A stretch of 64,000 bases of DNA from Vermamoeba vermiformis (lineage: Eukaryota). A program made the translations under genes and the position numbers. Every line of letters starts with the position of its first letter. Position 1 is the first letter of the stretch. Shown piece by piece: positions 1,540 through 35,100 of this stretch. Location of the stretch: NCBI GenBank assembly GCA_045837725.1, contig JBEWZL010000123.1, positions 124,001 through 188,000 on the forward strand, written 5' to 3'. Under the pieces are notes generated by a model, which was not told the DNA's origin, did not search any database, and saw only the letters and a program-made list of their open reading frames with translations.

Positions 1540-4231
1540 ATGATCAGCACTTTAAAAATCAACAAAATTGCGGCAGTACTCTCAGCACTGTGGAACAACA
1601 GCGCGGAGCTGAGCAGCTACATATCCGATGTGCAATATAGAGCTGTAGTTGCACTCTGCATGCCCACGCTGATGCGCATCCACACTCACAACACGCGCGT
1701 GCTCGGAGCACATCTGCTCTCGTTCAGTGAATTCAACTTGGTCAAACTTGGTCAACAGATGCTCGACCAGGGCCTCGTTGCACAACTGCACACACAGCTC
1801 GCCCTGGAAGAGAAGACTGGTGCCGCACTCAGCGCGGAACAATTGTTGCGTCAGTACGAAGCGAGTGACACGCGCGATCGCGTACGGTGAGTGACACGTG
1901 TCATTTGCGCACCTCCACCACTGACCTGTTTCCCAGCATTGTCATTGACGCATTGGTGCACTTGTCGCGTGAGTCAGTGCCTGACACGTGTCACAGTGCA
2001 CTGCTGTCACACGCGCTACACTGGCACGAGGTGTCACTTGTCATTGCACTGTTGGCGTGTCAAACAGCGACCTCCAGCGAGTACCTGTCACTCCCCGCGC
2101 TGATTCATGTGCTCGTGCAACACAGTGCCCTGCTCGACTGTCACGTGCTCGTGCTGGCACTCAACTCCGATCACGTGCGCTGGTCCGATGTGAGTGTGAC
2201 ACGTGTCATTCTTTGACCTCGACTGACACTCACTGCAGATTATCCACGCCCTGGTAGACTGTCACAATGTCCCGCAACGAGAATCACGTGCGCGAGTCAA
2301 GTAAGTGTTGCTAAAAATAGACGCAATCGTAATTCAGTGAACCAGAGCTGCCCTGAGTGTCATGGACCGTCTCGAACGGGTGACAGTGAGCCATTCAGTG
2401 AACGAGTCACGTGACAGCACTGCACCGTGGAGTCACAGTCACGTGATTGACACCATTACACGGAGACTGCTGTCAACGTGTCAAACAGCAGACTTGAGCA
2501 GCGTGTCACTGACACTCGACGACACAACTGCCATAAAAGGCAATGCTGATATCGATCACCTGTTCGACGTGCTGCTCGACATTTGCTTTCACGAAGATGT
2601 CACGCAGTCACGCGATCCCCTGCACGAGCTATATTTAGCCGAGCACGTGACTACTCTGCTGCACCACACCACACTCCGCGCAGTGCTGCGGCGCGATCAG
2701 ATCGATCACGTGATGAGTCAGCTCATCGTGCTGCTGCGGCGTGCTGAAGGTGCCACCACGCAAGAGCTGCATCGCCTAATTAGGAAAGTGAACGAATTCA
2801 GCGCGGAGAGTGTCGCGTCAGAGGACAAGTCACGTGATCAGAGTCGCGACCTCACCGAGCACTATCACGTGCGGTGGCGTGCACTGCTGCAAAGTCCATC
2901 ACGTGACGGCGCAGAGCTCGGAGCCCTGGTGCAGCACGTGCCACACATGTTCAGTTCACTGAACACGCTCATTCGACTCGTGCCGCAGTTCACCCACGTG
3001 TTCAATTCTCCGCAATCTCCGATGGAGATCACCGCAGAGTTCGAAGCACACGTGCAAAAGCTATTTTTAGACACAGAACTCGCCCCGCACCGCACACTGA
3101 ATCTCCTGCGCGAGATGAAGCGAGATTTGACCGACGATCAGCTGCTGCAAATATCTCCGCACGTGATTGGCACCTTGTTGCCTATTTTGGTGCGAGCCGA
3201 TGAAGTGCGCTATCATCACGTGATCAACACGTTTGTCTCGGTGTGGAAGCGCGTGCATCAGTTGAATCCTGAGCACGTGATGCAGTGGACAACACGAGCC
3301 CTGGTCGATGACTTGCAACAACTGCAAACAGAGCCATTGCGCCTGTTCGACCTACTTCCTAAAATGGTAGTGCATCCTCAGCTGTTCAGCACCCTGTTTT
3401 TAGAGGTAAGAATGAAGTTCACTTGCCATATTTAGTAATCCCTGCTAGATGATCATGTACTGGCGCGTCGTCTCCGAGCGACATCTGCGTGTGACAGGTG
3501 TCAAAGACGAGCACGTGACAACGTTGTGTCATTTGCAGACCAGTGCTGTCATTCAAGAGCTCTTGCACGCCTGCCAACATCCATCTTTGCAGCTCTGCGA
3601 CACAGGTCAGTGTTTGACACGCGTCAATGTTGTAATTCTAACGAGTAGTGTTTTGACAGGTGTCAAAGAGCAGATCGCAACGGCAGTGTGTCGCTACATT
3701 CACCAAGAATTCATTGAAATTCCCGCAATGACCAAATTAGTACATTTCCAGGGCTACGATGCGGCACTGATTCCGATCACTACCTCTGGGATACCCTCCA
3801 TGCGTATGTCACGTGATTCGTAGCTATATTTGGACTCACGCTCGCGCAGATGTCTGCCTGGATTTCATCCCTGAACTGTTGCAATCACCGAATTTGGAAA
3901 AACAAGTCTTTGCACTTAATCTGGCAGGTCACTTGATCGCCAAGTATCCAATCCAAAAAAGGCAAGTGTCCAGCGTGCAGTCGCGCAGTACTGACCTCAC
4001 TTTGACAGCCAACACATTGCCACACTGGTCTTGCAGCACATCAAAATGTGGCGCGAATCGGCGAATGACACGTGTCACGCGTACAGTACTGTCATTGACG
4101 CGACACTCGCATTGTGTTGTCAGTCATTTCCTTTTATGGTAGAATCAGCGCTAGAATTGCTGCAATCACTCGACACTGACACGAGTCACGTGCTCAAATC
4201 ACTGGTGCGCAAGAGCGTGGTCACGAATTGA
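1540..4231 (+). CDS. INTS2: Integrator complex subunit 2; multi-exon
   Basis: C-terminal exons give YIHQEFIEIPAMTKLVHFQGYDAALIPITTSGIPSM-VCLDFIPELLQSPNLEKQVFALNLAGHLIAKYPIQKS. This matches the conserved INTS2 C-terminal block (KLVHFQGY..GIPSMHICLDFIPEL). Confidence 0.88.
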
Positions 4232-4318
4232 CACGTGTCAAACTAGCATTTGCGCCGATTGGTTCATTCTTGTACATAATTAAATTGCCAAAAATAGCTA
4301 CAACTAATTACACGGTGT

Positions 4319-6966: not shown

Positions 6967-7133
6967 TGGTGACACCTGTCAAACACTGACTTGTAGCGAG
7001 TGTCACGGTTACTATATAAATTCCTCTATTCACGCGAGCAATTGTTTTTCACGTTGTTTATGTTCAGAGAATTCATGTACAAATTAGGCAAGTGCCACCA
7101 CGTCACTCGCCAGTGCTATAATTAGAAGGTGTT

Positions 7134-8001: not shown

Positions 8002-8082
8002 GATAATTAATATAATACAGAAGGGTGGTGTTGTGTTGAATTTGAATTAAAATTTTTAATGCAAGAAATTTGACAAGTAATC

Positions 8083-8224: not shown

Positions 8225-8276
8225 GTGTTATTTAAAGAGCGGTATTTTATTGTTATTTTAAACAAGTGCTGCTGAC

Positions 8277-13549: not shown

Positions 13550-14992
13550 ATGACTTCCAAAGTGCGCGTGGCTATTATAGGCTCAGGTGTCGTAGCTTAT
13601 TGCATAATTATGAACAGCTTTATTCGCACCGTCTCAGCCAACATTAATATTAATATTCAATTAACTAGGCTGGGGTGTTAAAGTACAATATGCTGCATTT
13701 AAGCACGCAGGACTCGAAGTCGCAGCGCTGTGGTGCAGATCTGAGGACAAAGTTGATGGTTTGAAAAGTCAGTTCAAAGATGTTGCACTCGTCACCAGTG
13801 ACTATGCGAGCATATTAGCCGAGCCATCTATTCAACTGGTAAGTGACAGCGCGCAGCACGACTGACTCACTGTGCGCACCAGATCTCCATCACCACACCC
13901 CCGCACCTGCATCGCGACATGTCGATTCAAGCACTGCGCGCAGGCAAGCATGTCTTGTGCGACAAACCCACGTGTTTGAACCGCGTTGAAGGTACGTCAC
14001 GTGCTGGACTGACTAGTGCACTAGTGACTGACTGACCCTCGCACTGACAGCGGAAGAGATGTGTCGCGAGGCTGCAGCACATCCCTCACAACTCGCGCTG
14101 ATCGATCACGAGCTCAGGTAACACGTGTCACGCGCGGAGATGAGTCATTGACACGTGTCAGGTATCTTGCACCGTACATCAGGGCCAGAGAACTCGTGGC
14201 CCAGGGCGCACTGGGCACAGTGATCCGCATCGACATTGTGGATGTGGTGGTGCCTTCAGGACCTGCCAATGCGTGGTGGTGGGACGCATCGCTCGGCAAG
14301 TGACAGCAGCGAGTAGTGATTAGTAGTAGTGCTGACTAGGCATTAGGTGGTGGACTGTTGGGGGCACTGGGCTCGCACTGCTTTGACTTGGCGTGCTACT
14401 TGACCAGCGACAGCATCGCAGCACTGCACTGTGTGCTCGACATCACGCAGTCACAGCGCGTCACGCGAGGTAAGTAGCGCTGAGAGTTGATTGGTCCGCG
14501 GTCACGTGACTGACATTGCGCGCCAGAGAACACAACAGTGACAGTGACAGCCGACGACTACATGAACATTCAGTTCAGGACTGCTAAAAATAGCCTCGGC
14601 ACCATCACTGGCATCTACAGGTCATTCGGCACGAGTTCACACACGATTACCATATATGGCAGTGAAGGAGTTATCACGTGCGTCGATGGCAAGATGTCTT
14701 GGCACAAAGTCAATGGTCGACTCGTAGAGGAGGTCGTGCAGCCCTCTGCGCCAGCTGGTGAGTGACACGTGTCAAAGTGAGTGTCGTAACTGAACTAATC
14801 GAAGCAGAGCTGCCGGACACCATCTGGGCGGCAGCGTCCATTGAAATCGGCAAGGCCATCAAACTAGCCCTCGAGGCCGGTGATCGTCAGGCAGTGTCAC
14901 GTGCCGCGCCGTTCAGTGAAGGGCTCGTGATTCAGTCGCTGCTCGATGCGGCGCGACAATCGCACGCCACACGGCAGTGGATCCAACTCTGA
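13550..14992 (+). CDS. Gfo/Idh/MocA family oxidoreductase (GFOD-like); multi-exon
   Basis: MTSKVRVAIIGSGWG Rossmann start, ITTPPHLH..ALRAGKHVLCDKP, IDHELRY, WWWDASLGGGLLGALGSH. Confidence 0.88.
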
Positions 14993-15246
14993 GCAAAAAA
15001 AGAGATTTACGCAACTCCTGGCATACAACGCCTCATATATGAATCAAATGTTGTATGTGTTAAGCTGCGACATAATAAACTGCCAGCAGATGTGCTTGTC
15101 AATCGCGCCTCACACCCGCGCTTGTTTTGCTATGGGATACGCACACTAATTTTAGACAATCTGGCGAACGAGTCTAGCACTGATAACAGGATATAATAGT
15201 AGTCGATAGCACCACAATCAGTTGGCCACTGGGATGCACTTAAGAA

Positions 15247-16217
15247 ATGAGCAAGACTAATGCACCCAGCAATACTACCCCCAAGACACCTCGACCTGGT
15301 GCGAAGCGTATCGAAACAGTTGATACTACACCATTGAGTGCCAAGAAACAAAATACAACCACCATATTCAAGAATTTATATGCATCCCCGTTCAATGTTA
15401 CATGGTAATTAATTTTCAAAATTATTTCCGAACTGAATACTCTATTAATGGTTTGAAACATAATCACCCTAAACCTCGAATAATTTTTTAAAATTCGCAG
15501 GCCCAAGCTGGATGAAGCGACAATGCAGTTAATTAAAATTGAGCTAGCCAAGTAAGTGCCCGACACCAATCTACGCTATTAACACATTTTTAGCGCATTT
15601 GAAGGCATTAGTATGCGGGCACCGAGACAACGAGCCAGTACACGAAGAGAGAGCAGATCTGCGGCACAAGACAGCAAAGAAACCGAGTCCGCAGAGCCTG
15701 CAACAAAACGACGCAAAATTGAGCACCAAGATGATAGCGCGAGTGCCCAAGTGAAGCAGATTCGCTCAGAGCTCGTGTTTGGATTGAATCAAGTGACGCG
15801 TGGTCTGGAAAAAGAGTCGCTCAAGCTCGTCATTGTGAGCAAGGACATTCAAGCGCAGATTGTCATTCAACACTTGCCTGTACTCGCACAGCTGCACCAC
15901 ACGCCACTGTGCTTGTTGGACATGTCTTCTGAAGAGTTAGGTGCTGTTTTTGGCTTGCGTACTGTCATCGCAGTCGGCGTGAAGGTAAGTGTCAAATGGA
16001 GTGTTGCAACAGACTGACAGGTGTCATTGTTTAGAACAAGACAGTGCTGAGCACACCACGCCTGGATGAGCTAGTGACAAAGATCATCAAGAGAACTCCT
16101 CCCGTGCAATTAGACTGGCTGCCAAGTGACGGTGTCAAAGTGTCACCTGAACCAACACTGCAAAACCTGCAAGTCACCAAGATGAGCTACCAATCCAAGC
16201 CTAAACCAGCTAAATAG
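15247..16217 (+). CDS. RPP38: RNase P/MRP subunit Rpp38/Pop3-like (L7Ae fold)
   Basis: N-terminal SPFNVTWP motif followed by the L7Ae core ELVFGLNQVTRGLEKESLKLVIVSKD..HLPVLA..LGAVFGLRTVIAVGVK. Confidence 0.72.
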
Positions 16218-16322
16218 ACAGCATGTGTTATTTGCTTCATGTACATAAAATATCTGTAAATAGAACACAACGCAGTAGTGAATTTTTAACTTATTTTTTA
16301 ATTTTGTTAACACGCGCGGTGC

Positions 16323-17425: not shown

Positions 17426-17960
17426 TATTCTTCAAAAAAAACAATACGATTAATAATTGAGATATTATTGTAAAATAATAATAGAAAATAACTCTATAAT
17501 TTAATTAAAACTTCGCATCGTTGCCTATATGTTATTGTTGGATTATTGTTTTATTATTATATTTTTCCTCGTCGTAAGAACATTAAGTTCATCCTTCATA
17601 AGCTAATCCTCCGATGCGATTACAATAAATGCAATTCTTCGCAACAACCACTCTTTGTGCTAGCATACTTACAATTTACAAGAGCTTATGTGATTGTCCG
17701 TGGTCTAACAGGATAAATAGTACCAACAAAAGTAGGAAGGGCTGGACTAGGAATTGTTCGGGAACCCAATTTTCATCTCGTCTCTGATTGGTCAGTTTAT
17801 TTTGGCCAACATTTTGGCCCAAAATCCCACAACCACAATCTCCTCTCATGCACGTCTCTTCGGCATCGAGACAGTGTGACTAGGTTAAAATTGGCCGCAA
17901 ATTTATGATACAATGTTTTTATTCGCTCGAACGCGATCTGTACAGATGTGTGTGAAGTCT

Positions 17961-19311: not shown

Positions 19312-19474
19312 ACTGCCGAGTGTTGTAGAGTTTAGTGTACTAATGTTGTGTTGTTCTTACGGGCAGCAAGGGTGAATGATCCGACGACTTTTATTGCCGT
19401 TTGTTTGGCCAAATTCTGTTCGGGACTACTGGTCTTATTGTCGCTCTATTCAACAGTGAAGTTCAAGAGGAGAC

Positions 19475-20508
19475 ATGAGTCAACACGGTCAATTAAATAC
19501 AGTCAAGAAAGATCCGTCGAAAGGCAAAGATGAGCACCTGTACAAGGTGAGGGCATTATATTATACCAGAGCATATCAATTAATTATATTATGCCATATT
19601 GTACCAATTAAACAATAGACTTGATAGTTGGAAATTGATTAACGTCAAGATAGAAAATTACGTTGATTAATCAATTAGATATTTACTTAATATTTATGCA
19701 CAAATAGGTGATAGTAATAGGAGATTACGCAGTTGGCAAGACAAGTCTAATTAAGCGATATTGCGAGGGCTATTTCACTCCAAATTACAAATTGACAATC
19801 GGTGTTGACTTTGCCGTCAAATCTTTGGACTGGGACGACAACACTAAGATCACATTGCAATTGTGGGACGTTGCTGGTCACGAGCGGTGCGTATATTCAA
19901 TATTTCTCAACTGATTCCGTTTGGATCGGCAGATCGTGCAATATTTAACGTTGATAATGATAGATTTGGCACAATGACACGCGTTTATTACAAATATGCT
20001 ATTGCGGGTATAATTGGTAGGTTTTGATCGTGTATTGAAGCAATATTAACTAGCGCAGTTTTCGATCTGTCGCGACCAGCGACTTTTGAAGCAGTAAGCA
20101 AGTGGCAAGAAGACGTTAATAATAAAGTAGTGCTCGCCAACGAAGAGCCTATTCCGTTGTTATTATTGGCAAACAAGGTCAGTCTTAAACGAGTTAATCT
20201 CTCATTACTCCATCGTGTACTGACATCAGATCTGCTCTCAGTGCGACATTGCGGACCCTAAAATAGACAAGGATACTCTCGATGAATATGCGCGCAGTCA
20301 TGGCTTCATTGGCTGGTACTACACTTCTGCGCAAGACAACACCAACATAGACGATGCGATGAACTTCTTAGTGCGCAAGATACTCGAAGTCGCGCAGAGC
20401 AACAAGCCCCGCGCACCTGAAGAGACAGTAGTGTTGAGCAGCAGCGAGGCACAAGACAATCCTGTGGATGTGTACGAGCGACAGGAGAAGGCCACTTGTT
20501 GCTCGTAA
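19475..20508 (+). CDS. RAB32: Rab32/38-family small GTPase
   Basis: EHLYKVIVIGDYAVGKTS, YKLTIGVDFA, LQLWDVAGHERFGTMTRVYYKYA, LLLANKCD, YTSA, and C-terminal CCS prenylation motif. Confidence 0.88.
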
Positions 20509-20734
20509 TGCCGTGTATGTTAATTGTGTAATAAAGTATCTTATAATGTATTTAGTCGCATATCATCGAGCTATAATCAATGCAGGTCGCTGAATGACAC
20601 TCAACACAAATTGAATGCCGATACTGTAACCTGCCAAATATAACTGACAGTGGAAGTCTGACATTTTATCGAGCAATTGACTGGAGACACCACATACGTG
20701 ATATTACATACAAAACGATCTGTTAAAAGCGCAT

Positions 20735-23700
20735 ATGACAGATCGTAGTCGTCCTCGTCGCGGTTCGCGCGATCGGTCCTATGAACGAAGATCGCGCTAC
20801 AACAACGAGAACAAATTCCATGACGATAATGCATCGAATAACAATGCGTAAGTATTAACTGCTGCTTGATAAAAAATTAACTGTTTAAGTTAGAATTTAA
20901 AAATAATTATTCAGCATATTAATTAAATTTCCAAGTCCCCACAAGTAGCGCTTTTAACGCTGATTATACTATTAGCAAGCTCAACACTACTGCTGACAAT
21001 AAGCGCAAGAGGAGTGACAGTGACAGCAGAGGACGAAAGCGCGCCAAGTTCAGTGAAGACAAGTCACGTGACCGCAATTCAGTGAACGGTGTGCCAGGCC
21101 TGGATTGGTGCACGTGCGAGGGCCGACTGAGTGATCGACGCGACACCAAGTCCATCTTCAATCACGCACTCCCGGGCGAGGAGTTCATCGCACCGTGTCC
21201 AGAGAGTTTCCAAATTAGGCAATTAGTGGAGCAGGGTCGACTGCACGTGTACGCAGTCACAATCTCCCCTGCAATCTCGCCTGATTGGCCGCGCACACGA
21301 TTCAGCGTGGAGGACAAAGAGTTCGTGTTCGATGGCTTCTACTTACTGGCACATCACGTGATCAATGTAAGAGAGCATTGCCTAATTTGGTAACTGACTG
21401 ACAGGTGTCAACAGGTGACTGACATGCAGTTCACGCACCTCGGCAATGAATGTCAGCTCAAGCTCGAGTCCGTGGCCCTGGAAGAGCTGGAGATTGCGGT
21501 GGAGATTGCAGACCTCGAGTGGAGCTACAAATATCTGTTCACTGAACTGCTCGGCTACTCCGACTTTGTCAAGTGGACCTGCAAATATCCTGGCGCATTC
21601 ACCACTCCGCGCACTCGTCACGTGCACGGCTGTCGGAGATTTCATTTCTATCCCAAGTTCGTGCATGACGCGGCTAAAAATAGTCCGCTGTCACTGCGCG
21701 ATCTCCGCCGTGTGATTCAAAGTCAATCAGGGCGCAATGTGTGGCACGTCATGTCGCACGAGGCACGTGATCAGCTGCGCGGGCAGTTGGTGCGGCATGA
21801 GGGGCGCTGTTACCGCGTGGATCACGTGGATGCGATGAGTGCCACGCTGCTGCACCAAGTCACGTGCTTCACGCACTACGAGCCAGTGTTTCGTCGCACG
21901 GAGCGCAAGGGCGGACATCAGCTGTTCAAACTCACCGCGCGTGCTGATCGAGGCCCTCGCGAGCTCAAGCTGCTCTCTGACAGGTGTCTCACGACTGCAA
22001 TCTCCGCTGATCTCGCGCACGTGGCCAGTCTCTTGCCGTCCCTGGTCTATCACTTGCGTCTGCATGCCGCACTGCACCGCGTCGAGCACGTGATTGGCGT
22101 GCAGTTCAGTGACCGCACACTGCTGCACCACGTGATCATTCATCCCTCGTACTGGGAGTGCATTGACGCTGCGGCCAGAGAACTGCGTGACGTCACCTCG
22201 CGTGTCACGTGGTGGGGCGTGTCACCGTCGTTCAGTGAACCAACTGTCACTGCCCTACCTGTGCGCAAGAGGCGCAGTGTGACACATCTCGACAGCGAGA
22301 TTTGGGAGCAGTTCTCGGGCAATCAGCGACTCGAATTCCTCGGCGATGCAGTGCTCGAATTTGTGGTCTCCACGCACCTGTTCATGCTGGTAAGTGTTTG
22401 ACATGTCACGTGGTCGCGACTGACACCTGTCACATAGTTGTCGGAGCACAAGGCCGGCGAGCTGAGCACCTTTCGGGCAGGGCTGGTCAACAACAAAGTG
22501 CTGTGTCACCTGGCACAACAACTCGAACTCGATCGACTCGTGACACACGTCTATCACCGCGAGCTGATCGACGACACCAAGAGCTATCAGAGTGTGGTCG
22601 GGGACTGCTACGAGTCACTGCTCGGGGCCATTTATCTCGACCAGGGCCTCATTGCTGTCCGCGAATTCTTCACGCGCTGTCTGTTCATGAACGACGAGGA
22701 TCGCGAGGCCCTCGGTGCACTGTGGCAAACACCGCCGTCCATGTCCCAGGCCCTGCTGTCCAGTCCGCAGCTGAGTGCAGGTGCAGGGTACAGCGCGACA
22801 CTGCAGCGCTTAGAGGCCCTGGAAGAGCTGACAGGTCTCGTGTTTCAGAACAAACTGCTGCTCGCTGCGGCATTCACGCACCCCTCTGTGGGCACCAATG
22901 CCTCGCTGGACATGCTCAACATTGGCAGCAATCAACGGTAGGGAGTGCCATGTGACACATGTCAATACTAATCACGCGTCAACAGATTGGAATTCCTCGG
23001 CGATTCAGTGCTGCAGCTGGTGGTGAGTCGGTACCTGTTCAATCGCTTCCCCGAGTACTTTGAGGGCCAGTTGAGTGTAAGTCGAGATCTATTTTTAGCC
23101 ACACATCACGTGACTCACTCGCGCTAGTTGGTGCGCACGACACTGGTGAACAATGAAATGCTGTCGCAAGTGGCACTCGAGCTCGGACTGCACAACTACA
23201 TTCGCTATCTGCCCGGTGAAGCACTGCTCGCGGATGGCCGGGCACACGCGCGCATGTTGGCGGACACCTTCGAGGCCTATCTCGCTGCCATCTACTTGGA
23301 CCGCGGCCTCGTGGTCGTGGAGACCTTTCTCTCCGTGGTCCTCTTCCCACGCCTCGATCACGTGCTCGAAGAACGCTCTTGGCTCGACTCGCGCACTCGT
23401 TTGACACGTGTCGTGTTGAACATCACCAAGTCTCGCACGACACTGCCGACATATCGCGTGACTGGCGAGAGTGGTCCCCCGCACCTCCGCGTGTACACTG
23501 TCACGTGCTTTTTGGCCGACAGACCTCTCGGTCAGGGCCGCGGAATATCTCGAAGTGCCGCGGAACAAGAAGCGGCTAAGAACACCCTGCTGCGCTATGA
23601 ATTTTCTCGCCCTGCCACAGATGTCAAGTCACGTGTCATTGATGTCAACTCCATCGTGTCAGAGAACGTGTCAGAGAATGACACGGCCCTGGTAGAGACG

Positions 23701-23766
23701 AGTGACATGTTGACAGATCTTGGCGAGCCCACTGAGGATGAAGTGCGCGAGATTGATGCGGAATAA
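20735..23766 (+). CDS. DROSHA: Drosha-type class 2 ribonuclease III (RS-rich N-terminus, central domain, 2 RNase III domains, dsRBD)
   Basis: Start [21 protein letters not shown]. Central domain [51 protein letters not shown]. RIIIa [28 protein letters not shown]. RIIIb [37 protein letters not shown]. ds[31 protein letters not shown]. Confidence 0.9.
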
Positions 23767-23872
23767 TTGCCTAATTAGGTAATGGAACATGTTTATATAT
23801 ATTACACTGTACAAATTTGTAAATACACAGATAATACTACTATAGTGATGAGTGCTAAGAAGGATGACTTAA

Positions 23873-25008
23873 CTAAGTATACCTCCAGTACGTGTTGCCA
23901 TAGCTTGCCACCAACTCCTCGCCCGCTCTGATTGGGGCGAGTGTCACGACCACTGAGGTCAGTTTGTCGCTCAGCCACACTTTGTTGAACGACACATTCG
24001 GTGCGGAGCGGATCTGCTTGTAGTCGTTTATGTACCGCGCTTCATTGCCCTATCAATGTCTGTTACTCGACACGCACCACTATATTCAACGAGACTACGC
24101 ACGAGTTGCGCGGCATCAATGACGACGTGGCCAGTGTACTGCGCGTACATGTTGTCGTAGTCGAGCATGTAGTAGGTCTGCTGCACGTGATGGCGCGAGG
24201 CAGTGTAGTGCACGAGTCCGGTGTATTCGCCCACGCACCGCCCTGCAGGCACATCCGTCAATGCGAACAGACCTCGTTGTCCGTAGCAGCTGTAACGCCG
24301 TCAGAACTGGTGGAATATACTCATATACGTACATATGAGCAGGGTCTGTAATCTCTCGTATTTCAGCGATGAGGCCCCACGTAGAAACAGTTTCCCTGAA
24401 CAGATCGGATTCAGCCGCGGTGAAAGAGGCACTCAGCGGCATGTCATATCGCAATGGGGCATTCAATCGCATGTTATTACACGAGATTACGTCGCTATTG
24501 GTCCTCTCAGCTACAATCTCCTCACCAGTTGCGATTGGCTCCACAATTTCGATCAGCACTCGAATTGTACCGGAAATGAATGCTCGATGTAAGCGAATAT
24601 TGTAATTCCTCTTGGAGAACGACATATATCTAGCATTAAATAAGCATTAACATTCGTCATAATTCGGTTGTACCTTGCTTCGTTTGAATTCTGAGTCAGA
24701 TCCAGGTACAAATTTCCGAGGGCAGGTATTGAACACAAATATAGTGCCAATACATCGCCGTCAGTATTTAACTCGTCCCCCTTCACTACAGTGCCAGCTA
24801 CATCACCAAGAAATGCGCCCACAGGCATATCACATCTCGCTTTGAGGAGCCGTCGTTCATGTTCGAGATGAACGGAGACTAGGTCAGTTATATTATATTC
24901 TGTATTGTATTCATTGCGCAGGTCACTCGGAAATTCCTCACTCCATTCCAGTTCTCGCGCGTACCGGACATCCAAGGGCCAGTTTGCTGGCAAAGTTTTG
25001 TAGGCCAT
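23873..25008 (-). CDS. Tandem SET-domain protein (first copy degenerate)
   Basis: Second domain GQRGLFA..VGEYTG..VIDAAQLGNEARYINDY..PIRAGEELVASYGNTYW. First domain FLGDVAG..LDLTQNSNEARY..PIATGEEIV. Confidence 0.75.
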
Positions 25009-25211
25009 CGTTTGCTCACAAGTGCTTCCAGCGATGTATATGGTACCTCCGCCCTATTAACAGTGTCATTAGTACAGTTTTCTGGCTGGTTTTCGGCAAA
25101 CATGTTTGGCTCAAAAAAATTGCGCTGAAATACTGGAGATTATTAGCGCTCTATTCGTTGTACACTGTAGTCATCGAGCAGCACTAGTCTTCCAAACAGA
25201 ATACAGTAAAA

Positions 25212-27221
25212 ATGAGTATGTATTCGTCACATTATGACTGCGATCCAAATCTCTCTGACAAATGATGATGCGATTGTATATTAATAATAATAGTGTTAAT
25301 AATTGCTATGATAATTATCGTATGCATTTATAACATTGGAAGATCTCAATTAATTTATTATACAAATAATTATTAATTATTTTTGGATTTAGTGAATATG
25401 AATGCCCTGGCCAGCAGCATTGCTGTTGATGAGTTTGGTCGACCATTCATTATTTTGCGAGAACACAAGCAAGAAAGACTTCAAGGAATTGACGCTTTGA
25501 AAGTATGAATCCGTAACAGCTTCGGATTTGGATCGAAACTAATTTTGTATTTGTCTGCAGCATCATATTCTTGCCGCTAAGAGTGTCGCCAATATTATGC
25601 GCACTTCACTTGGCCCAAAGGGTAAGTTACTAAGGCAACATCAAAATCAGATCTGACAAGTCGTTACATCAGGTATGGACAAGATGCTTGTCAGCTCAGA
25701 TGGTGATGTTACTGTCACCAATGACGGTGCTACTATTTTGGACAATATGGAGGTGAGTCTTCGTATTCTAACGCATTCGCCTTTAACACACGCGCAGATT
25801 GAAGATCAGATCGCCAAGTTGATGGTCGAACTGTCCAAGTCGCAAGACGACGAGATTGGTGACGGCACTACTGGCGTGGTCGTGCTCGCTGGTGCACTCT
25901 TGGAACAGGCTGAGGCACTCATCGACAAAGGTCTGCATCCTAGCCGCATCTCCAAGGGCTACGACATGGCCTGCGAAGTGGCCGTGCAACACTTGCAGAG
26001 CATCGCTGAGAGCGTGCAATACACGCGCGAGAACTTGGCACCGCTCGTTGAGATTGTTCAGGCCTCATTGGGCTCAAAGATGTAAGTCTAGTGACATGTT
26101 TGTGCAGACCTCAATTTGACACCTGTCACAGCGTCAACCGCATTCAACGCAAGTTAGCAGAGATTGCCGTGCAAGCAGTGGTGTCAGTGGCAGATTTGGA
26201 GCGCAAAGATGTGAACTTAGATCTGATCAAACTCGAAGGCAAGGTCGGTGGTTCATTGGAGGACACTGCCATCGTGAAGGGCATTGTGATTGACAAGGAG
26301 TTCAGTCACCCGCAAATGCCGCGCGAGATCAAAGACGCCAAGATCTGCATTCTGACCACCCCCTTCGAGCCCCCCAAGCCCAAGAGCGAGACCAAGCTCA
26401 AGGTGAAGAGCGCGGAGGACTACTTCAAACTGGCTCAAGCCGAGCAACACTACTTCACAGACATGGTCAAGAAGGTCAAGGACTCAGGCGCCAATCTCGC
26501 GCTCTGTCAGTGGGGCTTTGACGACGAGGCCAATCACTTGATGCTCGTCAATGACTTGCCTGCTGTGCGTTGGGTCGGTGGCGTTGAAATTGAATTGATT
26601 GCCATCGCTACTGGTGCTAGAATTATTCCGCGATTCAGTGAAATCTCTGCTGACAAACTCGGCCGTGCTGGTCGCGTGCGTGAAATTTCCTTCGGCACGA
26701 CCAAGGACCGCATGATTGTGATTGAAGACTGCCCCAACAGCAAGGCCATCACTATCTTTGTGCGCGGTGGCAACAAGATGCTCATCGACGAGGCCAAGCG
26801 CAGCATTCACGACGCACTTTGCGTGGCCAGAACGTTTGTGCGTGACAACCGCATTGTCTTCGGTGGTGGTGCCGCTGAAATTTCATCCGCCCTCGCCGTC
26901 TCCAAGGCAGCTGCAAAGATCTCCACCGTCGAACAGTACGCCGTGCGCGCCTTTGCCAATGCATTAGAGGCCGTGCCCGTCGCCCTGGCCGAGAACTCAG
27001 GTCTGCCAGCGATTGAAACTGTGAGTGCCGTGAAGGCACGTCAAGAGAAGGAACACAACCCGCGCCTCGGAGTGGACTGTTTGAGCAAGGGCACCAATGA
27101 CATGCGCGAGCAGCACGTGTTTGAAGCACTCATCTCCAAGCGCGCGCAGTTCATGTTGGCCACACAGGTGGTGAAGATGATTCTCAAGATTGATGACGTC
27201 ATCAAGAAGGGCTCGTTCTAA
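25212..27221 (+). CDS. CCT5: Chaperonin CCT epsilon subunit
   Basis: [79 protein letters not shown]. Start is either 25212 (ATGA mini-exon) or 25398. Confidence 0.97.
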
Positions 27222-27305
27222 GACAACTGAGCTGATTTTGATTGGTCGACAACAATTGCCTTATATAGTAATAAAAACGCGAAAATTGTAACAGCTCAGC
27301 GAGTG

Positions 27306-28763
27306 TTATTTATTGTTTGGCGTTGTATTCAATACGACGTCGTATTTGTTCGCTGTTCGTTCGGCACAGCGCAGTTTAGCAGATCTGGCTCGTGGATTGC
27401 TGTCAATCTCCGCTTGGGTCGGTCGAATTGCCTTTTTGGTCACGAGTTCGAGCGCTGGTCCGTGAGTCACGTGACTTGCCAAATTAGGACGTATTTGTGC
27501 TTTACCAATACGATGCGAGGCATAATCTACTAATCAAATTAGCTCCCGAATGTCAAAAGTGTCAATGTGTCACCTCCGCGCAGTCCACTCGCGTACTGCA
27601 AATAAGACTTGACCTGTATATACAACTGCATTATAATAGCAGCACTAATATCTATTAACACTGACCAAGCGATCTTCCAGCGAATGAAATGTCACCACCA
27701 CTAGTCGTCCACCAGGGCTCAGCACTGCTGTCGCTGCTTGCAATCCCCGTTCAATCTCCTCCAACTGTCACGTGTCACTTTCATTGCCATATTTAGACTC
27801 GCACTTACCTCTTGATTGACGAACATGCGCAATGCTTGAAATGTTTGCGTGGCTGGGTCGCTGTGTTTGCCCGGTGGAGGTCTCGGTTTGACACGTGTCA
27901 CGAGTTCGCGCAGCTGCTGTGTCGTGCTGAACGGTTGTGATTTCCTTTCTTGGACAATGGCACGTGCTATGGCATGGGCGTGCGGCTCTTCTCCGAGCTA
28001 CAGAGGTCGATTAATTGCTTAATTTGGTAATGTCGTACCTCAAAAATGATCTGTGCCAGTCGGTCCTGGTCAAAGGTGTTGATCACGCGTGCAGCTGTCA
28101 GACCCTGATCAGCGGTGTCCATGCGCATGTCAAGGGGCCCTGGTTGACGGAATGAAAAGCCACGTGCCGCAGTGTCAAGCTGCAGACTGGAGACACCGAG
28201 GTCAAACACGACACCTGTCACTTTGCCGATCATGTCTGGCCTGTTCAGTGAATGACACGTGTCAAACTAATGCTCGCATCAACATCGTCACTTACATGTC
28301 GCGTTGCATCACGTGCAGCAGTTGACTGAATCTGGTGTGTTTGGCGATGAATCGCTCGTTGAATGATTGCAAGCGCGTAGAGGCTAGTTGAAGTGCGTCG
28401 TAGTCTCTGTCAAGACCCAACACGCGTACTCGAGGGTGTGAGGCTGCATGCGGATCAGCAACTGAATTGAGCAGTCGCAAGTGACTTACATAATATTTGT
28501 TTGGTGTATCCACCGAGCCCTAGTGTTGCATCAATCACTAGACCTCCTTGATCTTTAATTGCTAATTTTTCAAGCACTTCAGTGAGGAGCACGGGCTTGT
28601 GGATCTGTTCGACATTGATCTGCTTCAGAGGTGATGATTTAGCACTGGTTGATTTCTTCACAATTTTTTTGGCATAATTCCTGTGCTGGAAGTAACTCGC
28701 GAGTGTTAGTGCTGACTTGGAACCCATCCGCGTCTGTATTCGTCGCAAAAGGCTCTGCTGCAT
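27306..28763 (-). CDS. METTL15: RsmH/MraW-family rRNA m4C methyltransferase, probably mitochondrial
   Basis: Basic presequence-like start, [62 protein letters not shown], and [14 protein letters not shown]. Confidence 0.92.
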
Positions 28764-29069
28764 TGAGTAAGCATAACGAGCTGAAATAACAATGGAGCTG
28801 TTGTATTTGTATGTGATAGCACACAGTATTGTGAGACCAGTGATGTCTATTTTCTATCGACAAACGAAATTTCATAATTAAGATATCATCTTTGCATGCC
28901 GAATGTGTTGCTGCTAATCATCCCCCGCACACCTTCAGCGCTGACCACCTCAATAGGTCAATCCCGACTCTAACTGAACAGTCCCACTGGTCAAAGTACT
29001 ACGGCAGCCCTACAAATGTTGCTGAACTTCGGGTGCTATTTACAATTACGAGTATAATACAAGAGAGGC

Positions 29070-31221
29070 CTATTGTTCGTTGCAATAGGTCTCGTAGATG
29101 AGGCGAGAGAGTACTGGCCCTAATTTCTTGCTGCTCGCTGGTCCTTTCAAATCTTTGAGCAGATCCGCGCGCTGTTGACTCGAGCTGAGTGCATTATAGG
29201 CCTGTACGAGTGCGAGTGGTGTGGGGTACTTGGCAGTGATCGCTGCTGCTTTGTCTTCTGAACAGCCGTGCAGCTGGTGCTCGTGTCAGTAACTGCCTAA
29301 TTAGGAAATGCTGTCACTTACTGTCATGAGCTGTTTGGCGAAGATGTCAGTGAGTGTCAAGTCACGTGACTTGGTGTTGCATTCACTGAACTGTTCAAAA
29401 GTCAGGTGCAGTGTGGTCAGACCCTGACCCTTCAACTTGTCACCGATCAGTCTGTCGCTCTCAGTGGTGTGCACGTGACTGCCACAGTGACGCGCTGTCA
29501 AGACACGTGTCATGCGCGCCAAAAACTTGACTGTCTCACTTGCTGTCTGGGTCTGTGGTGACAGTGTTAGTTCACTTGATGACACGTGTCAAATACTGAC
29601 CTGCACAACACGCAGTCCGTCGCTGACAGCAGTTGACGTCAGTGCTGTCAACAGAGTCTCCTTTTTGACACCCCCAGGCCGAGGTCGCTGAAAATATCCG
29701 TTGATATCTCCCTCCACGAGATACAGCACGTCACGCACGCCACAGCGGCGCAGTCGGAATTTTTGTTCTAAATTAGGTAAGAGCGTGGACTGCGTGACGA
29801 GAGGGACTTACCCTTGTATCGACCGTCAATGATGCTGGCACAGAGGTCGGGGATCTGTTTGCGCTCAATGATGTGATCGAGCAGCACTTCAGCCCCGCGA
29901 TCAGTGCGACCGAGCCACACGACGTCACCGAGCTCCAACTTGCGCACTTGACACGTGACACCTTCTTTCACCAGCTGATCGTGCAGATAACTCCGCTCCT
30001 TTTGCGTCTTGATCTCGCGGTTGTCGAGCACGACGATCACTTCTTCGATCACGTGCTCGGTCAGAGTGTCACTTTGACACGTGTCATCAGATGTCACTGA
30101 TCGATCTCCATGCGATTGTGCGCGCTCAAACTGTTGCAGATCTGCGAGCAGATGATTGACACGTGTCACACTCGGTGCAGTCACTGCTTTGACAGGTGTC
30201 TCTTGCCACTCCGCACTGTCGCGCCAAGTGTCAACATCAGGTGTCTGTGCGTGCAATTGTTCCGCTAGTGCACGGCCTTGGTCAGTGAGCGAGTAGCGCG
30301 CAGGTCTGCCATCACGTGACACGAGCACGTGCTTTTCAAGTGTGGCCATGCCACCCCAAGCAGTCGCGTGATAGGGCATGCCTGGCGCTGGTTCAAATGA
30401 GGCGTCAGCGAGGGGTGCAGCACGTGCGATGAGTGCTGTCTTGCTGAGCCCAGACAGTGACGTGTCAGACCCTGGTAGAGAGCACGTGATCAGTGCGTGG
30501 CGGTACAGGGCCAGCAACAGGGCCCAGGCACCACTGCGCACTTTGGGCACGTATTGTTTGACAGGCTTGGACTTGGGCACTGTCTCTGCGCTCTCAGTGG
30601 TCTTGGCGCGTGTCGTCTTCTTCTTCTTGAGCTGGGGCTCGTCAGTTGAATCACGTGACTCGGTGTGGTGAGCACGTGATTCAGCAGGGACGTTTGGATC
30701 TGCTCTGTTCTCTTGCTCCTCAGTGTCTGCACGTTCTAAGCAGTCGCATTAGCTACACTGTGCACATTGTCACTCGCTACCAGTACGTACTGCGCTTAGC
30801 ACTCTTCTTTGCGGGTGTGACGGGCACGAAGGGCTGACGGCAGTGCGGATCTGGCTCAAAACTCGCTTCAGGGTGTTTGCGACGGTACTCGTCGAACTTA
30901 TCTGCTAATTTCTTGGCAATGAACTTGCCCACGCCATCGAGTACCATGGCCTGTTCGCCCGAATAGAGTGGTGCTGGATATTTTTGAAAGGAACGGATGG
31001 CCTGCACAAATTAATTGATTAGTCGAGCACAGACTGCAACAAACACCTGGCACGTATTATATTATCAATGTATATTTATAGCACTATTAAAATAGAGGGC
31101 AATAAAAGTTGCCTACTTTTCTGTAGTTGAGCACCAGCCGATCAGCGTGGCTGGCTTGAGCCTCGCGCTGCAACTCTTTCAAAAAGCGTTCAAAGAGAGG
31201 ATTGGCACTCGACTGAGTCAT
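29070..31221 (-). CDS. MUS81: Crossover junction endonuclease MUS81
   Basis: N-terminal HhH (NPLF..KYPAPLYSGEQAMVLDGVGKFIA), winged helix YVPKVRSGAWALLLAL, ERCC4 nuclease motifs VLDNRE, LELGDVVW and IIERKQIPDL..IIDGRYKEQKFRL, and C-terminal HhH. Confidence 0.94.
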
Positions 31222-31294
31222 AGTTGTGCATAGATACACTTGTTGCGCTCACCTGCTGCTCGATCCGCAGCGAATTGATTTAAAAATGAACGAA

Positions 31295-31304
31295 GGCGCG
31301 AAAA
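31295..31304. promoter_or_regulatory. E2F-like site GGCGCGAAAA upstream of MUS81
   Basis: Matches the TTTSSCGC consensus about 75 nt upstream of the ATG. Similar words lie upstream of POLE2 (1263-1272) and CDC7 (47581-47590). Confidence 0.45.
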
Positions 31305-31587
31305 AAATTTAACTGGCCACTTCCTAATCAGGAAATACAGCCCTGGTGGATGGATCTGAGCCTTAGATATTCCCTTGACACGACTAATATACAGACTGAA
31401 TAGCATTGAAACTACTAATGTGTTCCATCACATCCCCAGATAGATTTTCATTACTATCATTCTTATTATAATAATACTTGCCTTATAATCCCTATATGTG
31501 TACGTGCGTTATAATAGTTATATTATATTCGCGTTAATTAGGGTTTATTATTCACAACAAATATTTCAGCTGATCGCATCGTGTAAT

Positions 31588-32073
31588 TTACCACTTTTGT
31601 TTTTCTTTCTTTTGGGTCATCAAGACTTTAAATCTTCGCTTCAAGATTACTCTGTGACGCGAGTATTTGTCATCGGGGGAGAATCGAGCTACATCCAAGA
31701 CGATCAGTACGCGCAAATAAGATTTGAACGATAAGTTAACAACAAATTATTATTGTCCTTACATAATTATATTTTTATCGCTATAGTGTTATTGCAGTAT
31801 ATTGAGCGTTATTAATCTAAATGCAGGCGAAATAATAAATTTTTAACTTACCGGGATGGGCAGAGATGGTAGCAGAACCATCAGGGGCGGTTTTCTATCG
31901 TTGTTTATGTAATTAATACATCATATTAAATTAATTATAATTTTTTCTGACAAAAATCAATCGAACCGCAACCAGATCAGGTTTCTGATTGCGATCGAAA
32001 CATAATCGACTTGACTTACCGACAAAGTGTAGACACGCTTGCCTTCCTTATCCAAGTAATATCTCAAATGCAT
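31588..32073 (-). CDS. NOP10: H/ACA snoRNP subunit Nop10; 3 exons
   Basis: Spliced [59 protein letters not shown]. Confidence 0.95.
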
Positions 32074-32181
32074 GTTGATAGTATTTGTTGTGTTCTTCGT
32101 GAACTGGGGCACAAAATAATATTTATCGAGCAGATCTAATTTACGCACGAAAAATTATGATAGAAACACAATAGAGACATC

Positions 32182-35100
32182 ATGGGGGCTAAGAACTCGA
32201 CATTTGAAGGAGTAGATGAGGTCAAACAGCTCACTAATCGTAAGATCATTCATTTTGCTGCAGTCTCGTGGCGCAACTACTGATTATTTACGCCTTTTCG
32301 ATCCAGTCACTGACGAAGAAATTCGCACTGTTTACGAACAGTTCATGCGCAAGTATCCTAATGGTGAGATGACTAAAGAGGTACGCAAATTAATTATGAA
32401 AATTGAAGTAATATTCCAATTCGACTTTGAACCCTTCATGATTTCATTTCAATTCAATACGCACACATTATAATATACGGTCGAACATTATTCAATGATA
32501 TCGTATCAACGTCGTAAATTCCATGACACACGCGTAATCTCATCAATACGCACGCAGGAATTCATCGCGGAGAACATGAGCATCAACAGCGGCAGCCGAG
32601 AGTTCTGGGAAGAGATTTTTCATCTGTTTGCGAAACACAGTGGCACGCGCATTGACTACAAAGGTACCTTTCACTTGCACGTCAGTTCTGTCACGTGTGT
32701 TTGAATAGCAGATCTGCAGTGCTTGTAATACCCGATGTTGCAATGCTAACTGACCCCTCTACTAGACTTCATCATTAATTATGGCCTGTTATTGAAGGGC
32801 ACGACTGAAGAGAAATTAGCGTGTAAGTCACTTGACTTGTGTTGTGTGGACTGCTCTTAATCTCCCACGCAAATTCGCGGGAAATTTCGCGTAACAATCA
32901 CGTGATTGGTGATTCATTCTCTGAACGGTGTTTGTGTAGCGCGACACTGACGATGAAATTTCATTCAGGGGCGTTCAAAATGTTCGACACGAAGCAGCGC
33001 GGCTATCTCGAGAACGCGGAGATCAGCGAGCTGTTGCTGTTCTTGTTCGCGTGTGAGAGGCAAGTGCTGATTGCCTAATTAGGAAATACTCACCCTTCCC
33101 TTTGCAGTCGCCATGCCCCGCAAGCACCGGGTTCAGCGCCGCGGAAAAAGTCCTCGTTGCGCACAGCGATCAATCTGAGCGGCACAGCGGAACAATTAAT
33201 GCGCGACATGGACCGCGACGGTGATGGCAAAGTGACGCGCGAAGAATTCATTGCTGCGTGCACCAACAACGAGGGGATTGCACGCGTATTTGAGTCAGCA
33301 CTGCAACGCCTGATTGAAGGTCAGTGTTTGACACTTGCAAGTGACACGTGTCAACGGGCGAGACTAATCTTTGCACCAGTTTCACCGAAGGGCACTACCG
33401 TGGAGATATTTGCAGATCAAGTCGCGGGCCACAAGAAGGCAGGCACGGGCATCATGAAGCAGGGCGACAAGTTGTACAAGCCGTTCACTGCGCGCGAATT
33501 TGAATTCTACGAGTGCATGAAACACTGGCCACGTGTCCCGCGCTTTTTTCCGCAGTACTTTGGTCGCACTCAAGTGCTCGTGCATCAGACTGGCACGCCG
33601 AGCAGTGCTGAACAGACCCTCGTCAACCGTATCCTTATCTGGCTAATTCAATCATTGCACTTATTTTGCTGTACAGCATGACACCTTGACTCTAAAAATA
33701 GATTTTCTCATCCTCGAAGACTTCACCCAGGGCTTCAAAAAGCCGTGCATTTGTGACCTGAAGATTGGTCGGCGCACCACTGAAGAGGACGCGTCGCTGT
33801 TCAAACGGATGCAAATGAACGCTGTGGACACGATCTCGACCTCGGGACAACTAGGGCTTCAGAATATGTGGCATGCGGGTGAGTGAATGACACGTGTCAA
33901 ACAGCAGTCGCTGATCAGTGTCACGTGACAGGTGTACAACACAGCGCGCGAAGAGTACGTGGTGAAAGACAAGCTGTGGGGGGGCTTGTTGTCGTCGAAC
34001 AGCGGCATCAGAGAGGCACTGCTCTTGTTCGCGAACAATGGCCGCGAGATCAGATATGACGTGCTCAGGGCATTTATTCCGCTGGTCGATGAAGTGCTCA
34101 CCTGGTTCAAGACCGAGAATCACATGATGCGCTTTGTGGGCAGCAGCATTCTGCTCATCTACGACGCCGAGGACAAGCAGTGGGGCATTGTGCCACATCA
34201 CCGCCACTTGCATCACGTGAAGCCGCACCGCAGGAAGTCTGAGCCACGCCCGCACCGCGAGAAAGTGATCGCGAGGAGCGAAGAGGGCCCGCACACCACA
34301 CGCGAGATGTACGAGGACTCCGAGAGCGGTGATGCCGTGTCACTGCCGAGTCATCTGTCACCGGTCCGACACGCGACGAGGACTCGTGGAGCACTGTGAG
34401 TGACTCGCCACTGCCCAGCCCACGCACCATGGACGTGGACAAGCCGACCATCAGCAATCACCGCTCATCACCGCAACAAGACTCAAACACCAATCACATC
34501 CCTGCACTCGTGGACCTCAAAGAGCAGCTCAGTTCACTCGGTCAGAATGCATCCAATGAGGCCAGTGTCAGTCCGCGCACGCGAGCACGTGCTGCATCTA
34601 ATTCGCACAAACCATTCACGCGGCCCAATGCCAGCAAGGTGCGTGTCGGACTGGTGGACTTTGCACACACCAGTGCCCTGCAAGAGAATCAACTCGACGA
34701 CGACTACATCTTTGGCGCGGAGAATGTGTTGACACTGCTCGGTGAACTGTGCTTGGAAGAGAAAGACAAGAACTTTGAAGAGCTGTGGATCACTGAGCTA
34801 CGACGAGCACGTCGCAGTGTGTTGGTGCGCATTGAAAACAAGACGAGCAAGACACTCGAATTAGTGACCAAGACACTACTCGGTGAACATCAGCTCTGGG
34901 CTGCAAAGCCTCGTCAACAAATTCCGCCGTTCAGCACCATGGTGTGCGGCACACACGGCGAGAACTCAGTGTCAGGCACGCACGCCACAGTGGACTACGT
35001 GATCAAAGACCCAGCTGCGGACACACCCGCCAAACAGTGCCACTTGGTTGCTGAGTGGGAGAATTCAATCGGCTTGTTTGCGCGTCGAGTGTTTGTGTGC

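Follow-up and report, generated by a model that had tools for sequence, protein, structure and literature searches.

The question raised by this 64 000-nt stretch of Vermamoeba vermiformis contig JBEWZL010000123.1 (positions 124 001 to 188 000, referred to here as the window) is why one 12-bp palindrome, TGACANNTGTCA, made of inverted TGACA arms around a 2-nt centre, recurs throughout its gene bodies. A first-pass annotation had reported at least 24 perfect copies, and our census of the window recovered all 23 of the starts that it listed together with one at 136. These 24 copies compare with 0.22 ± 0.46 expected from dinucleotide-preserving shuffles, and the excess is confirmed as real and strong. 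All but one of the perfect copies (23/24) lie within 1–33.9 kb, and a further 19 copies carry one mismatch. Over-represented words inside coding sequence, such as HIP1 and uptake sequences, have been described in bacteria, where their cause is still under debate. The window offers a eukaryotic case, in which the word occupies spliceosomal introns as well as exons, alters amino-acid composition, is gene-specific and is conserved at around 20 % DNA divergence. Our preferred, though tentative, reading, to which we give somewhat less than an even chance, is that the 12-mers may serve a dimeric DNA-binding protein as its sites, and that certain genes retain them along their bodies as an intragenic binding code.

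The layout of the word was strict. Inverted arms with a 2-nt centre were found 24 times, compared to 0–3 times each for everted or direct arms and spacers of 0–10 nt, and TGACAC directly abutted GTGTCA 15 times, where half-site frequencies predict 0.08. The centre was CG in 15 copies, CC in 4, GG in 4 and CA in 1, and was never GC (the form TGACAGCTGTCA, 0/24). Counted as 48 half-sites, the copies comprised 39 TGACAC (81 %), 8 TGACAG (17 %) and 1 TGACAT, and independent pairing of these half-sites predicts 15.8 CG, 6.5 CC/GG, 0.7 GC and 0.8 CA/TG centres, against the 15, 8, 0 and 1 that were counted. The first-pass annotation had described the central two bases as variable. Several centres do indeed occur, but since these are only CG, CC/GG and a single CA, the centre is the specified sixth base of each half-site and not a free spacer. 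The word was also cohesive, as 20 occurrences of ACACGTGT narrowed to 18 of GACACGTGTC and 15 complete 12-mers. All 24 copies keep CANNTG, with CACGTG as the core in 15 and CACCTG, CAGGTG or CACATG in the other 9, and the outermost base was the most frequent site of deviation among the one-mismatch copies (8/19). Such a layout with independent half-sites reads as the signature of a putative homodimer on double-stranded DNA. In the mechanism that we propose, a lineage-specific, homodimeric and sequence-specific double-stranded-DNA-binding protein would recognise a pair of 6-bp half-sites lying end to end, one TGACA(C>G) and the other complementary to it, and the outermost base would be the least critical.

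Chance, base composition or assembly polishing might be thought to generate such a pattern, as the half-sites and CACGTG are themselves enriched (TGACAC/GTGTCA 4.6-fold in the window), which raises the baseline for the full word. However, none of 100 dinucleotide shuffles reached 24 copies, none of 1000 codon-preserving shuffles reached the exonic count given below, and the adjacency of the half-sites exceeds its own expectation by the margin already described. A polishing artefact, which the first-pass annotation had kept in view, is also at odds with read-derived contigs (run X1) that span several copies with few differences, record 7 covering 25876–30069 with 10 differences. Furthermore, a single metagenome scan yielded 80 CCT loci, of which one, L028 (4173 nt), is the sole close relative of the window, and this independent contig has the word at orthologous sites. 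The other 79 loci come from distant eukaryotes and served as negative controls; no 12-mer was found in their 238 kb, and their CACGTG content was 0.20 per kb, compared to 1.67 in the window and 2.16 in L028. We consider an artefactual origin refuted.

Descent from a mobile element would be a different source of repeated words. Here the copies would be remnants of a very short element, resembling a miniature inverted-repeat transposable element (MITE) or an introner, with terminal inverted repeats that meet to give the palindrome. The palindromic form of the word and its frequency in introns would suit such an origin, a few pairs of copies share 16–39 nt around it (families D3, D6 and D8), and invasive intronic elements are known in other protists, according to a paper on Amoebophrya. 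The flanks are otherwise unrelated, though, and the longest recurring unit obtained by repeat finding was about 16 nt, roughly (T/A)(T/G)TGACACGTGTCA(A/C)(A/T). Exonic copies lie in frame and encode peptides, the half-site statistics fit recognition and not descent, and the comparison with L028 detailed below revealed no presence/absence differences. An origin of this kind is largely refuted and in our view very improbable. The view of the first-pass annotation that this is a word of the protein-dimer type, and not a transposon or MITE remnant, is supported by the strict orientation and spacing, the independent half-sites and the unrelated flanks.

The copies were placed relative to introns and exons by means of the four introns of the CCT-epsilon gene, which are fixed by a 98 % identical protein, by reading in gene orientation, and with a noisy, home-made exon/intron model that was used as a guide only. 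After retraining, all four CCT introns were found by this model when run at the loosest setting, and its output was noisy on antisense strands. Intron seeds, defined by splice consensus and coding flanks, clustered at 42–55 nt. The unbiased intron set, chosen independently of the motif, comprised 24 introns (1477 nt), including a spurious one at 30641–30740 (plus strand, antisense to MUS81) and one of uncertain boundaries at 33053–33166. RNA reads under the same species label showed one well-supported joint, at 17085–17239 in RPLP0, and do not define the introns of motif-rich genes. These reads cover few genes. Over 14001–34000 they are only 95–99 % identical to the window, with many fixed differences in RPLP0 (16.3–17.4 kb), and so stem from a distinct strain or a close species. 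With the CCT introns, the reading in gene orientation and the model, 13 copies were assigned to introns (three of them probably), 9 to exons, 1 to a 3′ flank and 1 was ambiguous. The earlier statement that exons as well as introns carry the word thus holds, and with 22 of the 24 copies in introns or exons the word is not concentrated in promoters.

Five of the intronic copies lie near the beginning of their intron. In the plus-strand INTS2 gene, the copy at 1892–1903 (CG centre) starts at nucleotide 6 of the 50-nt intron 1887–1936, directly after GTGAG, and that at 2197–2208 (CG) at nucleotide 8 of a tiny intron read by eye as 2190–2238. The copy at 14763–14774 (CG) again starts at nucleotide 6, of a 47–50-nt intron beginning at 14758. 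Two others start at nucleotide 10, namely 29580–29591 (CG), which follows GTCAGTATT in an intron of the minus-strand MUS81 gene, and 33888–33899 (CG), which follows GTGAGTGAA in the predicted intron 33879–33944. Elsewhere, the copy at 16015–16026 (GG) overlaps a branch-point-like CTGAC in the 50-nt intron 15985–16034 and stops 8 nt short of the 3′ splice site, and that at 26117–26128 (CC) abuts the 3′ splice site of the 50-nt CCT-epsilon intron 26082–26131; the latter copy is identical in L028, where the intron is otherwise scrambled. The RNase III (Dicer-like) gene holds three copies, at 21399–21410 (GG) in the 48-nt intron 21367–21414, which also contains CCTAATTTGG, at 22421–22432 (CC) in the 48-nt intron 22390–22437 between RNase III exons, and at 22953–22964 (CA), probably in the predicted intron 22938–22985. 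The copy at 28253–28264 (CG) lies in the 55-nt intron 28241–28295 of the minus-strand MraW-like gene and keeps 11 of its 12 bases in L028. Finally, two copies probably fall in introns that are in frame and stop-free. That at 3654–3665 (GG) lies between a branch-point-like TTCTAAC and the 3′ splice site of the candidate 63-nt INTS2 intron 3606–3668, in line with a Pfam INTS2 match about 15 residues longer than the profile, and that at 33342–33353 (CG) lies in the candidate 60-nt intron 33320–33379 of the plus-strand EF-hand/IPK gene. These two candidate introns share the start GTCAGTGTTTGACAC, and if retained each would add about 20 extra residues.

The exonic copies write themselves into proteins. 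At 136–147 (CC), in a minus-strand gene with a subthreshold match to DNA polymerase epsilon/alpha subunit B, the word encodes LTGVT; at 1982–1993 (CG) in an INTS2 exon it encodes PDTCH, and at 4066–4077 (CG), in the exon formed by the last INTS2 open reading frame (ORF), NDTCH. The copy at 3492–3503 (GG) is probably also exonic in INTS2 (RVTGVK), the ORF being open there and a longer intron possible. The copy at 4229–4240 (CG) supplies the TGA stop codon of the last INTS2 ORF, in agreement with the overlap claimed in the first-pass annotation; the name INTS2 is backed by ORF 3449–3820, which matches positions 864–950 of the Pfam profile (E 3.5e-19). In the minus-strand MraW/RsmH-like methylase gene the copy at 27889–27900 (CG) encodes VTRVK and is identical in L028. 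In MUS81 the linker between the winged-helix and ERCC4 domains holds two copies, at 30075–30086 (CG; DDTCQ) and 30157–30168 (CG; VTRVN). The sole copy past 34 kb, at 53406–53417 (CG), encodes TDTCQ in an unnamed minus-strand gene that also carries the only distal copy of CCTAATTAGG. The copy in the 3′ flank, at 6970–6981 (CC), lies 4 nt past the mitochondrial carrier ORF, which, stop codon included, extends to 6966. The ambiguous one, at 14149–14160 (CG), lies either in a predicted 65-nt intron, 14118–14182, whose start overlaps a one-mismatch copy at 14119, or in an open ORF.

The concentration in introns suggests a further alternative, in which the word, or its TGACA half, would be read in pre-mRNA as a splicing enhancer, a branch-point extension or the site of an RNA-binding protein. 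Approximately 13 of the 24 copies are housed in ~50-nt introns, and the unbiased intron set contains 5.4 12-mers per kb, compared to 1.2 per kb in the exons of motif-rich genes. The earlier remark that many copies lie at intron ends holds, and placement is bimodal: among the 24 unbiased introns, the 8 with a perfect 12-mer (8/19 within the first 36 kb and 0/5 past it) have it either starting at nucleotide 6–10, by the 5′ splice site, or ending 3–12 nt before the 3′ splice site, where it overlaps the branch-point-like CTGAC. The intronic blocks conserved in L028 include 3′ splice regions as well. However, the word does not behave as a core splicing signal, being present in only a third of these introns, palindromic and also exonic; the other 16 introns, including three of the four CCT introns, are without it. 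Recognition of RNA does not need a strict inverted repeat of fixed spacing, exonic copies are distant from splice junctions, and one copy sits at a stop codon or 3′ flank. Furthermore, GG- and CC-centred copies occur in both transcript orientations, and those centred on GG are unable to pair with one another. We therefore regard an element acting on RNA as improbable.

Action at the nucleotide level was also apparent from the reading frames. The frame distribution of exonic copies, a check proposed in the first-pass annotation, revealed that both frames that avoid TGA are used, VTRVN, VTRVK and LTGVT representing the T-R/G-V peptides and PDTCH, NDTCH, DDTCQ and TDTCQ the D-T-C-Q/H peptides that the first-pass annotation had described. 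The exonic CACGTG hexamers of rich genes fall in all three frames (21/12/11). Since both stop-free frames, all three hexamer frames and mixed orientations of GG and CC centres are used, the word acts at the level of DNA. Another proposed check, a null model that preserves protein and codon usage, was run on 5724 nt of confidently exonic sequence from rich genes, by shuffling synonymous codons within each segment. The enrichment persisted, with 7 perfect 12-mers against 1.8 ± 0.8 in shuffles, 44 CACGTG against 18.2 ± 2.7 and 73 half-sites against 31.2 ± 3.8, and none of the 1000 shuffles reached the observed count in any of the three comparisons. The shuffled exons themselves exceed ordinary DNA by a wide margin, since their proteins are already skewed. 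In rich genes the dipeptide His-Val makes up 1.26 %, compared to 0.38 % expected (3.3-fold) and 0.12 % in poor genes, and histidine 4.6 %, compared to 1.8 % in poor genes.

The 12-mer is the tip of a broader, 8-fold excess of CACGTG, which occurs 107 times in the window against approximately 13.5 expected, the remaining CANNTG boxes occurring 8–36 times each. This excess is gene-specific. INTS2, the Dicer-like gene and MUS81 are rich, mostly with one CACGTG per ~70–160 nt of exon, whereas housekeeping genes are poor: CCT, RPN7, the carrier, RPLP0, the GYF gene and the formin have 0–2 per 0.8–2.2 kb at a similar GC content of third codon positions, and the proteasome genes are also among the word-poor. 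The long INTS2 exon at 2341–3435 (plus strand) has 13 CACGTG over 1092 nt, most of which take the form TCACGTGA, and lacks the 12-mer. MUS81 exons within 29304–30748 (minus strand) have 14 in 1263 nt. In the gene with two RNase III domains and a dsRBD (21394–23763, plus strand), weakly constrained exons of 1005 and 636 nt have 8 and 4, respectively, and the 501 nt of an exon with a catalytic domain have none. Beyond the first-pass annotation, then, lie this 8-fold excess, its gene specificity and the location of about half of the copies in introns of ~50 nt.

A second palindrome, GCCTAATTAGG(A), often inside (A)TTGCCTAATTAGGAAAT, was also observed, with 17 matches at ≤1 mismatch against 0.46 expected. 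GCCTAATTAGG lies at 38, 234, 518, 2774, 12537, 21210, 21380, 23769, 27478, 29295, 33073 and 53599, in tiny introns (e.g. 21367–21414, 29274–29321 and 230–279) and once in the long INTS2 exon (2774). The closest 12-mer is a median of 277 nt away from it, compared to 1603 nt under the null (P 0.003), and different palindromic words sometimes share one 48–50-nt intron. In 2-kb bins, the density of the 12-mer correlates with that of other CACGTG (rho 0.75) and with that of GCCTAATTAGG (rho 0.65). A hybrid palindrome, TGACACGTGACA when read on the appropriate strand, combines an arm of the 12-mer with an arm of GTCACGTGAC and is present at 27766–27777 and 29949–29960; the copy at 27766 closes an intron (...ACAG|) and is identical in L028. 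On a larger scale, GC content is mostly 0.47–0.52 over 1–36 kb and 0.41–0.46 over 36–64 kb, and introns are GC-rich and word-laden in the first region and AT-rich and word-free in the second. This shift suggests a boundary in composition at the scale of a domain or gene.

Conservation was assessed against L028, which is syntenic with 25168–29428 of the window at 80 % DNA identity. In the overlap, all five sites (≤1 mismatch) are at orthologous positions with 59 of 60 bases identical, and this small sample had no presence/absence differences; the gain and loss of sites that the first-pass annotation had wished to see followed in a relative was thus not observed. Four of the five sites are identical over all 12 bases, compared to 16 % of all 12-nt windows in the alignment. 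The three intronic sites retain 12, 12 and 11 of their 12 bases and are the best-conserved blocks of their introns; across seven aligned introns only 1 of 216 background windows is conserved at 12/12 and 3 of 216 at ≥11/12. The conservation of the intronic sites is significant. Variants with one mismatch are unchanged in both the window lineage and L028.

From the half-site grammar, the independence of frame, the mixed orientation of GG and CC centres and this conservation, we infer that a protein dimer recognises the word on DNA and that the sites are maintained. Under the intragenic binding code, selection would actively keep them, and dense clusters, in which the 12-mer is accompanied by simpler CACGTG and GCCTAATTAGG, would build up inside the transcribed bodies of certain genes. 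The sites would occupy the cheapest sequence, namely introns of ~50 nt, in which they overlap the branch point or the 5′ splice site, and those parts of exons that are under weak constraint, and the code may control the transcription or chromatin of this set of genes. If so, a compact genome with 50-nt introns would put its regulatory DNA inside genes and bend protein sequence in doing so.

Several of our own results weigh against a code kept by selection. Taken alone, the pair of exonic sites also present in L028 does not reach significance, as 29 % of exonic windows are fully conserved. Of the three conserved intronic sites, two lie directly at 3′ splice sites, and splicing constraint therefore contributes to their conservation. 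The evidence covers 64 kb and one 4.2-kb contig from a relative. Perfect copies outnumber those with one mismatch, which is unlike the sites of an ordinary degenerate factor, and the saturating density of CACGTG, with its inflation of His and His-Val, is extreme for a regulatory code and hard to justify site by site. A weak excess of CACGTG also reaches the exons of poor genes (8 in 10191 nt against 3.2 ± 1.3, with no 12-mer). Lastly, the density of the 12-mer in 2-kb bins correlates with GC content (rho 0.61), which is expected of a drive linked to recombination.

The preponderance of perfect copies, the saturating density, the weak excess in poor genes and the link with GC content favour the chief alternative, a molecular drive resembling HIP1, in which a sequence-specific DNA modification or mismatch-repair system, or a bias in gene conversion, would make and maintain the palindrome at any place that constraint permits, while single sites are functionless. 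Recombination or chromatin would set its local intensity, and purifying selection would oppose it in highly expressed genes. Such a drive would account for the use of all frames at a costly imprint on protein composition, and a system that maintains its sites predicts conservation as well. Palindromic 6-mers are, moreover, over-dispersed compared to non-palindromes (SD, standard deviation, of log2 observed/expected 0.95 versus 0.56). The frequency of deviants at the outermost base has a parallel in HIP1, according to PMC4390886. Other results do not fit. A converting drive would not readily explain the unchanged one-mismatch variants, nor the neighbours of CACGTG, for which no overall depletion is evident: the one-step neighbours of the hexamer have an observed/expected ratio of 1.07 overall, and the two classes that are low are also low in the motif-poor half. 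The AT-rich introns of poor genes, although interleaved with rich genes, lack the word, and the co-localised second palindrome has an AT core and would require a second drive. CpG is not depleted (observed/expected 1.02), which gives no sign of decay through cytosine methylation. To our knowledge, no such drive is known in eukaryotes. We consider it possible but unlikely; if true, a novel form of directed sequence evolution would have to be recognised in eukaryotes. The points favouring a selected code are gene specificity among interleaved genes, three co-localised palindromes that share introns as in regulatory modules, the persistence of one-mismatch variants and the undepleted neighbours. 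As a separate observation, some palindromic 6-mers are scarce under an order-2 Markov null (AAGCTT 4 against 22, CCTAGG 0 against 3.3 and GTATAC 2 against 9.3), which resembles avoidance of the restriction type, 64 kb being too small to judge this.

Among known systems, HIP1 (GCGATCGC) of cyanobacteria is the closest phenomenon to the word of the window. Both are short, perfect palindromes far above expectation, HIP1 within and between genes and the word in coding and non-coding DNA. HIP1 sites are evolutionarily conserved and their one-nucleotide deviants are biased to the first or last base, according to PMC4390886 and PMC13756078, and the word of the window is likewise conserved. However, it is 12 bp long and eukaryotic, has a semi-degenerate centre, prefers tiny introns and is strongly gene-specific, whereas HIP1 is spread roughly evenly across genomes and linked to orphan DNA methyltransferases that recognise its inner core. 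The comparison with HIP1 made in the first-pass annotation therefore stands as regards the use of every usable frame, the preponderance of perfect copies, the outer-base deviants and conservation; its two proposed causes, a binding code and a repair bias, are not separated. A true eukaryotic counterpart of HIP1, in which a lineage-specific DNA-recognising system, acting through modification plus repair or through gene conversion directed by the motif, writes and maintains the 12-bp palindrome and its CACGTG core in certain genes and so reshapes their proteins, is possible but unlikely. The word would then mark 'self', or a chromatin domain, in a heritable manner, and would not be a set of ordinary regulatory sites.

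Other over-represented words resemble it less. DNA-uptake sequences (DUS), uptake signal sequences (USS) and Chi are also found in coding regions, bias peptides and owe their maintenance to a molecular process, not to regulation at each site. USS and Chi are non-palindromic, and all three are strand-oriented and tied to natural transformation or RecBCD, machinery that is not implied for the word of the window. Gene-class-specific features of gene bodies that mark genes for control through chromatin or RNA include the periodic An/Tn clusters (PATC) of C. elegans introns and the determinant of selective removal (DSR) hexamers of S. pombe meiotic transcripts. PATCs are periodic A/T tracts and DSR motifs act on RNA in a strand-specific manner; neither is a long perfect palindrome or reshapes protein composition to a comparable degree.

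The first-pass annotation had likened the word to a site of TALE homeodomains (TGIF, MEIS or PKNOX). The 24 copies do share inverted TGACA arms and a 2-nt centre with the TALE site TGACAGCTGTCA, and in a TGIF1 paper (PMC6158717) the TGIF1 homeodomain binds a TGACA motif and this GC-centred form is printed. However, the label is not specifically supported, as GC centres are absent from the copies, the preferred half-site is TGACAC and not TGACAG, and the sites lie very densely in gene bodies. The word partly resembles the G-box or abscisic acid-responsive element (ABRE) of bZIP proteins and the E-box of bHLH proteins, in that 15 of the 24 copies contain GACACGTGTC and all keep CANNTG; a plant study (PMC8133646) assigns GACACGTGTC to bZIP and CACGTGk to bHLH. 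In contrast to these boxes, 9 of the 24 copies are without the ACGT core, the outer TGA/TCA is as fixed as the core, the sites are intragenic and not promoter-proximal, and the organism is not a plant. In its behaviour the word would thus be classed as a dimer-recognised iterated palindrome, and we do not place it in the HIP1, TALE or G-box/E-box family. A full-text literature search on the word, its core and related keywords, which did not extend to supplementary files, did not turn up any account of a comparable eukaryotic word.

The sites lie in gene-dense eukaryotic DNA whose introns are very short. Pfam named DNA polymerase epsilon/alpha subunit B (28.8 bits, just under the cut-off of 29.1), INTS2, a GYF-domain gene, a mitochondrial carrier, a proteasome subunit, RPN7, an L7Ae-family gene, ribosomal P0 (RPLP0), a TFIIS-like gene, the Dicer/Drosha-like gene with two RNase III domains and a dsRBD, CCT-epsilon, the MraW/RsmH-like methylase, MUS81, the EF-hand/IPK gene, a Diaphanous-type formin, an MBTPS1-like protease and a protein kinase. 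Among named organisms, Arcella and Balamuthia have the sequences closest to CCT-epsilon (71–72 %), a weak placement by which the organism is probably an amoebozoan. The MraW-like gene belongs to an rRNA methylase family. Rfam and tRNA scans of the window gave no matches, a search for longer homologues of the INTS2 exon found none, and a PDB sequence search returned only noise. DNA of the window was matched in metagenome runs from water, aquifer and soil, of which only X4 was aligned to the window. The organism is cultivable, since RNA-seq runs exist under the species label.

Searching a viral collection with a 16-bp palindrome, TTTGACACGTGTCAAA, also recovered a family of tailed bacteriophages (L148, L164, L158, L145, L142, L132, L120, L137, L098, L106 and L113), with genes for a lambda-type portal, gpA terminase, capsid protein E, tail sheath and baseplate J. 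As the phages were found by searching with this very word, the 16-mer that they share with the eukaryote was taken as a coincidence of the search design and not as evidence on the eukaryote. In the phages, TTTGACACGTGTCAAA occupies gaps of ~20 nt in a one-directional gene array, just upstream of start codons, and once lies within the head-protease gene; from this placement it looks like a gene-start or promoter element.

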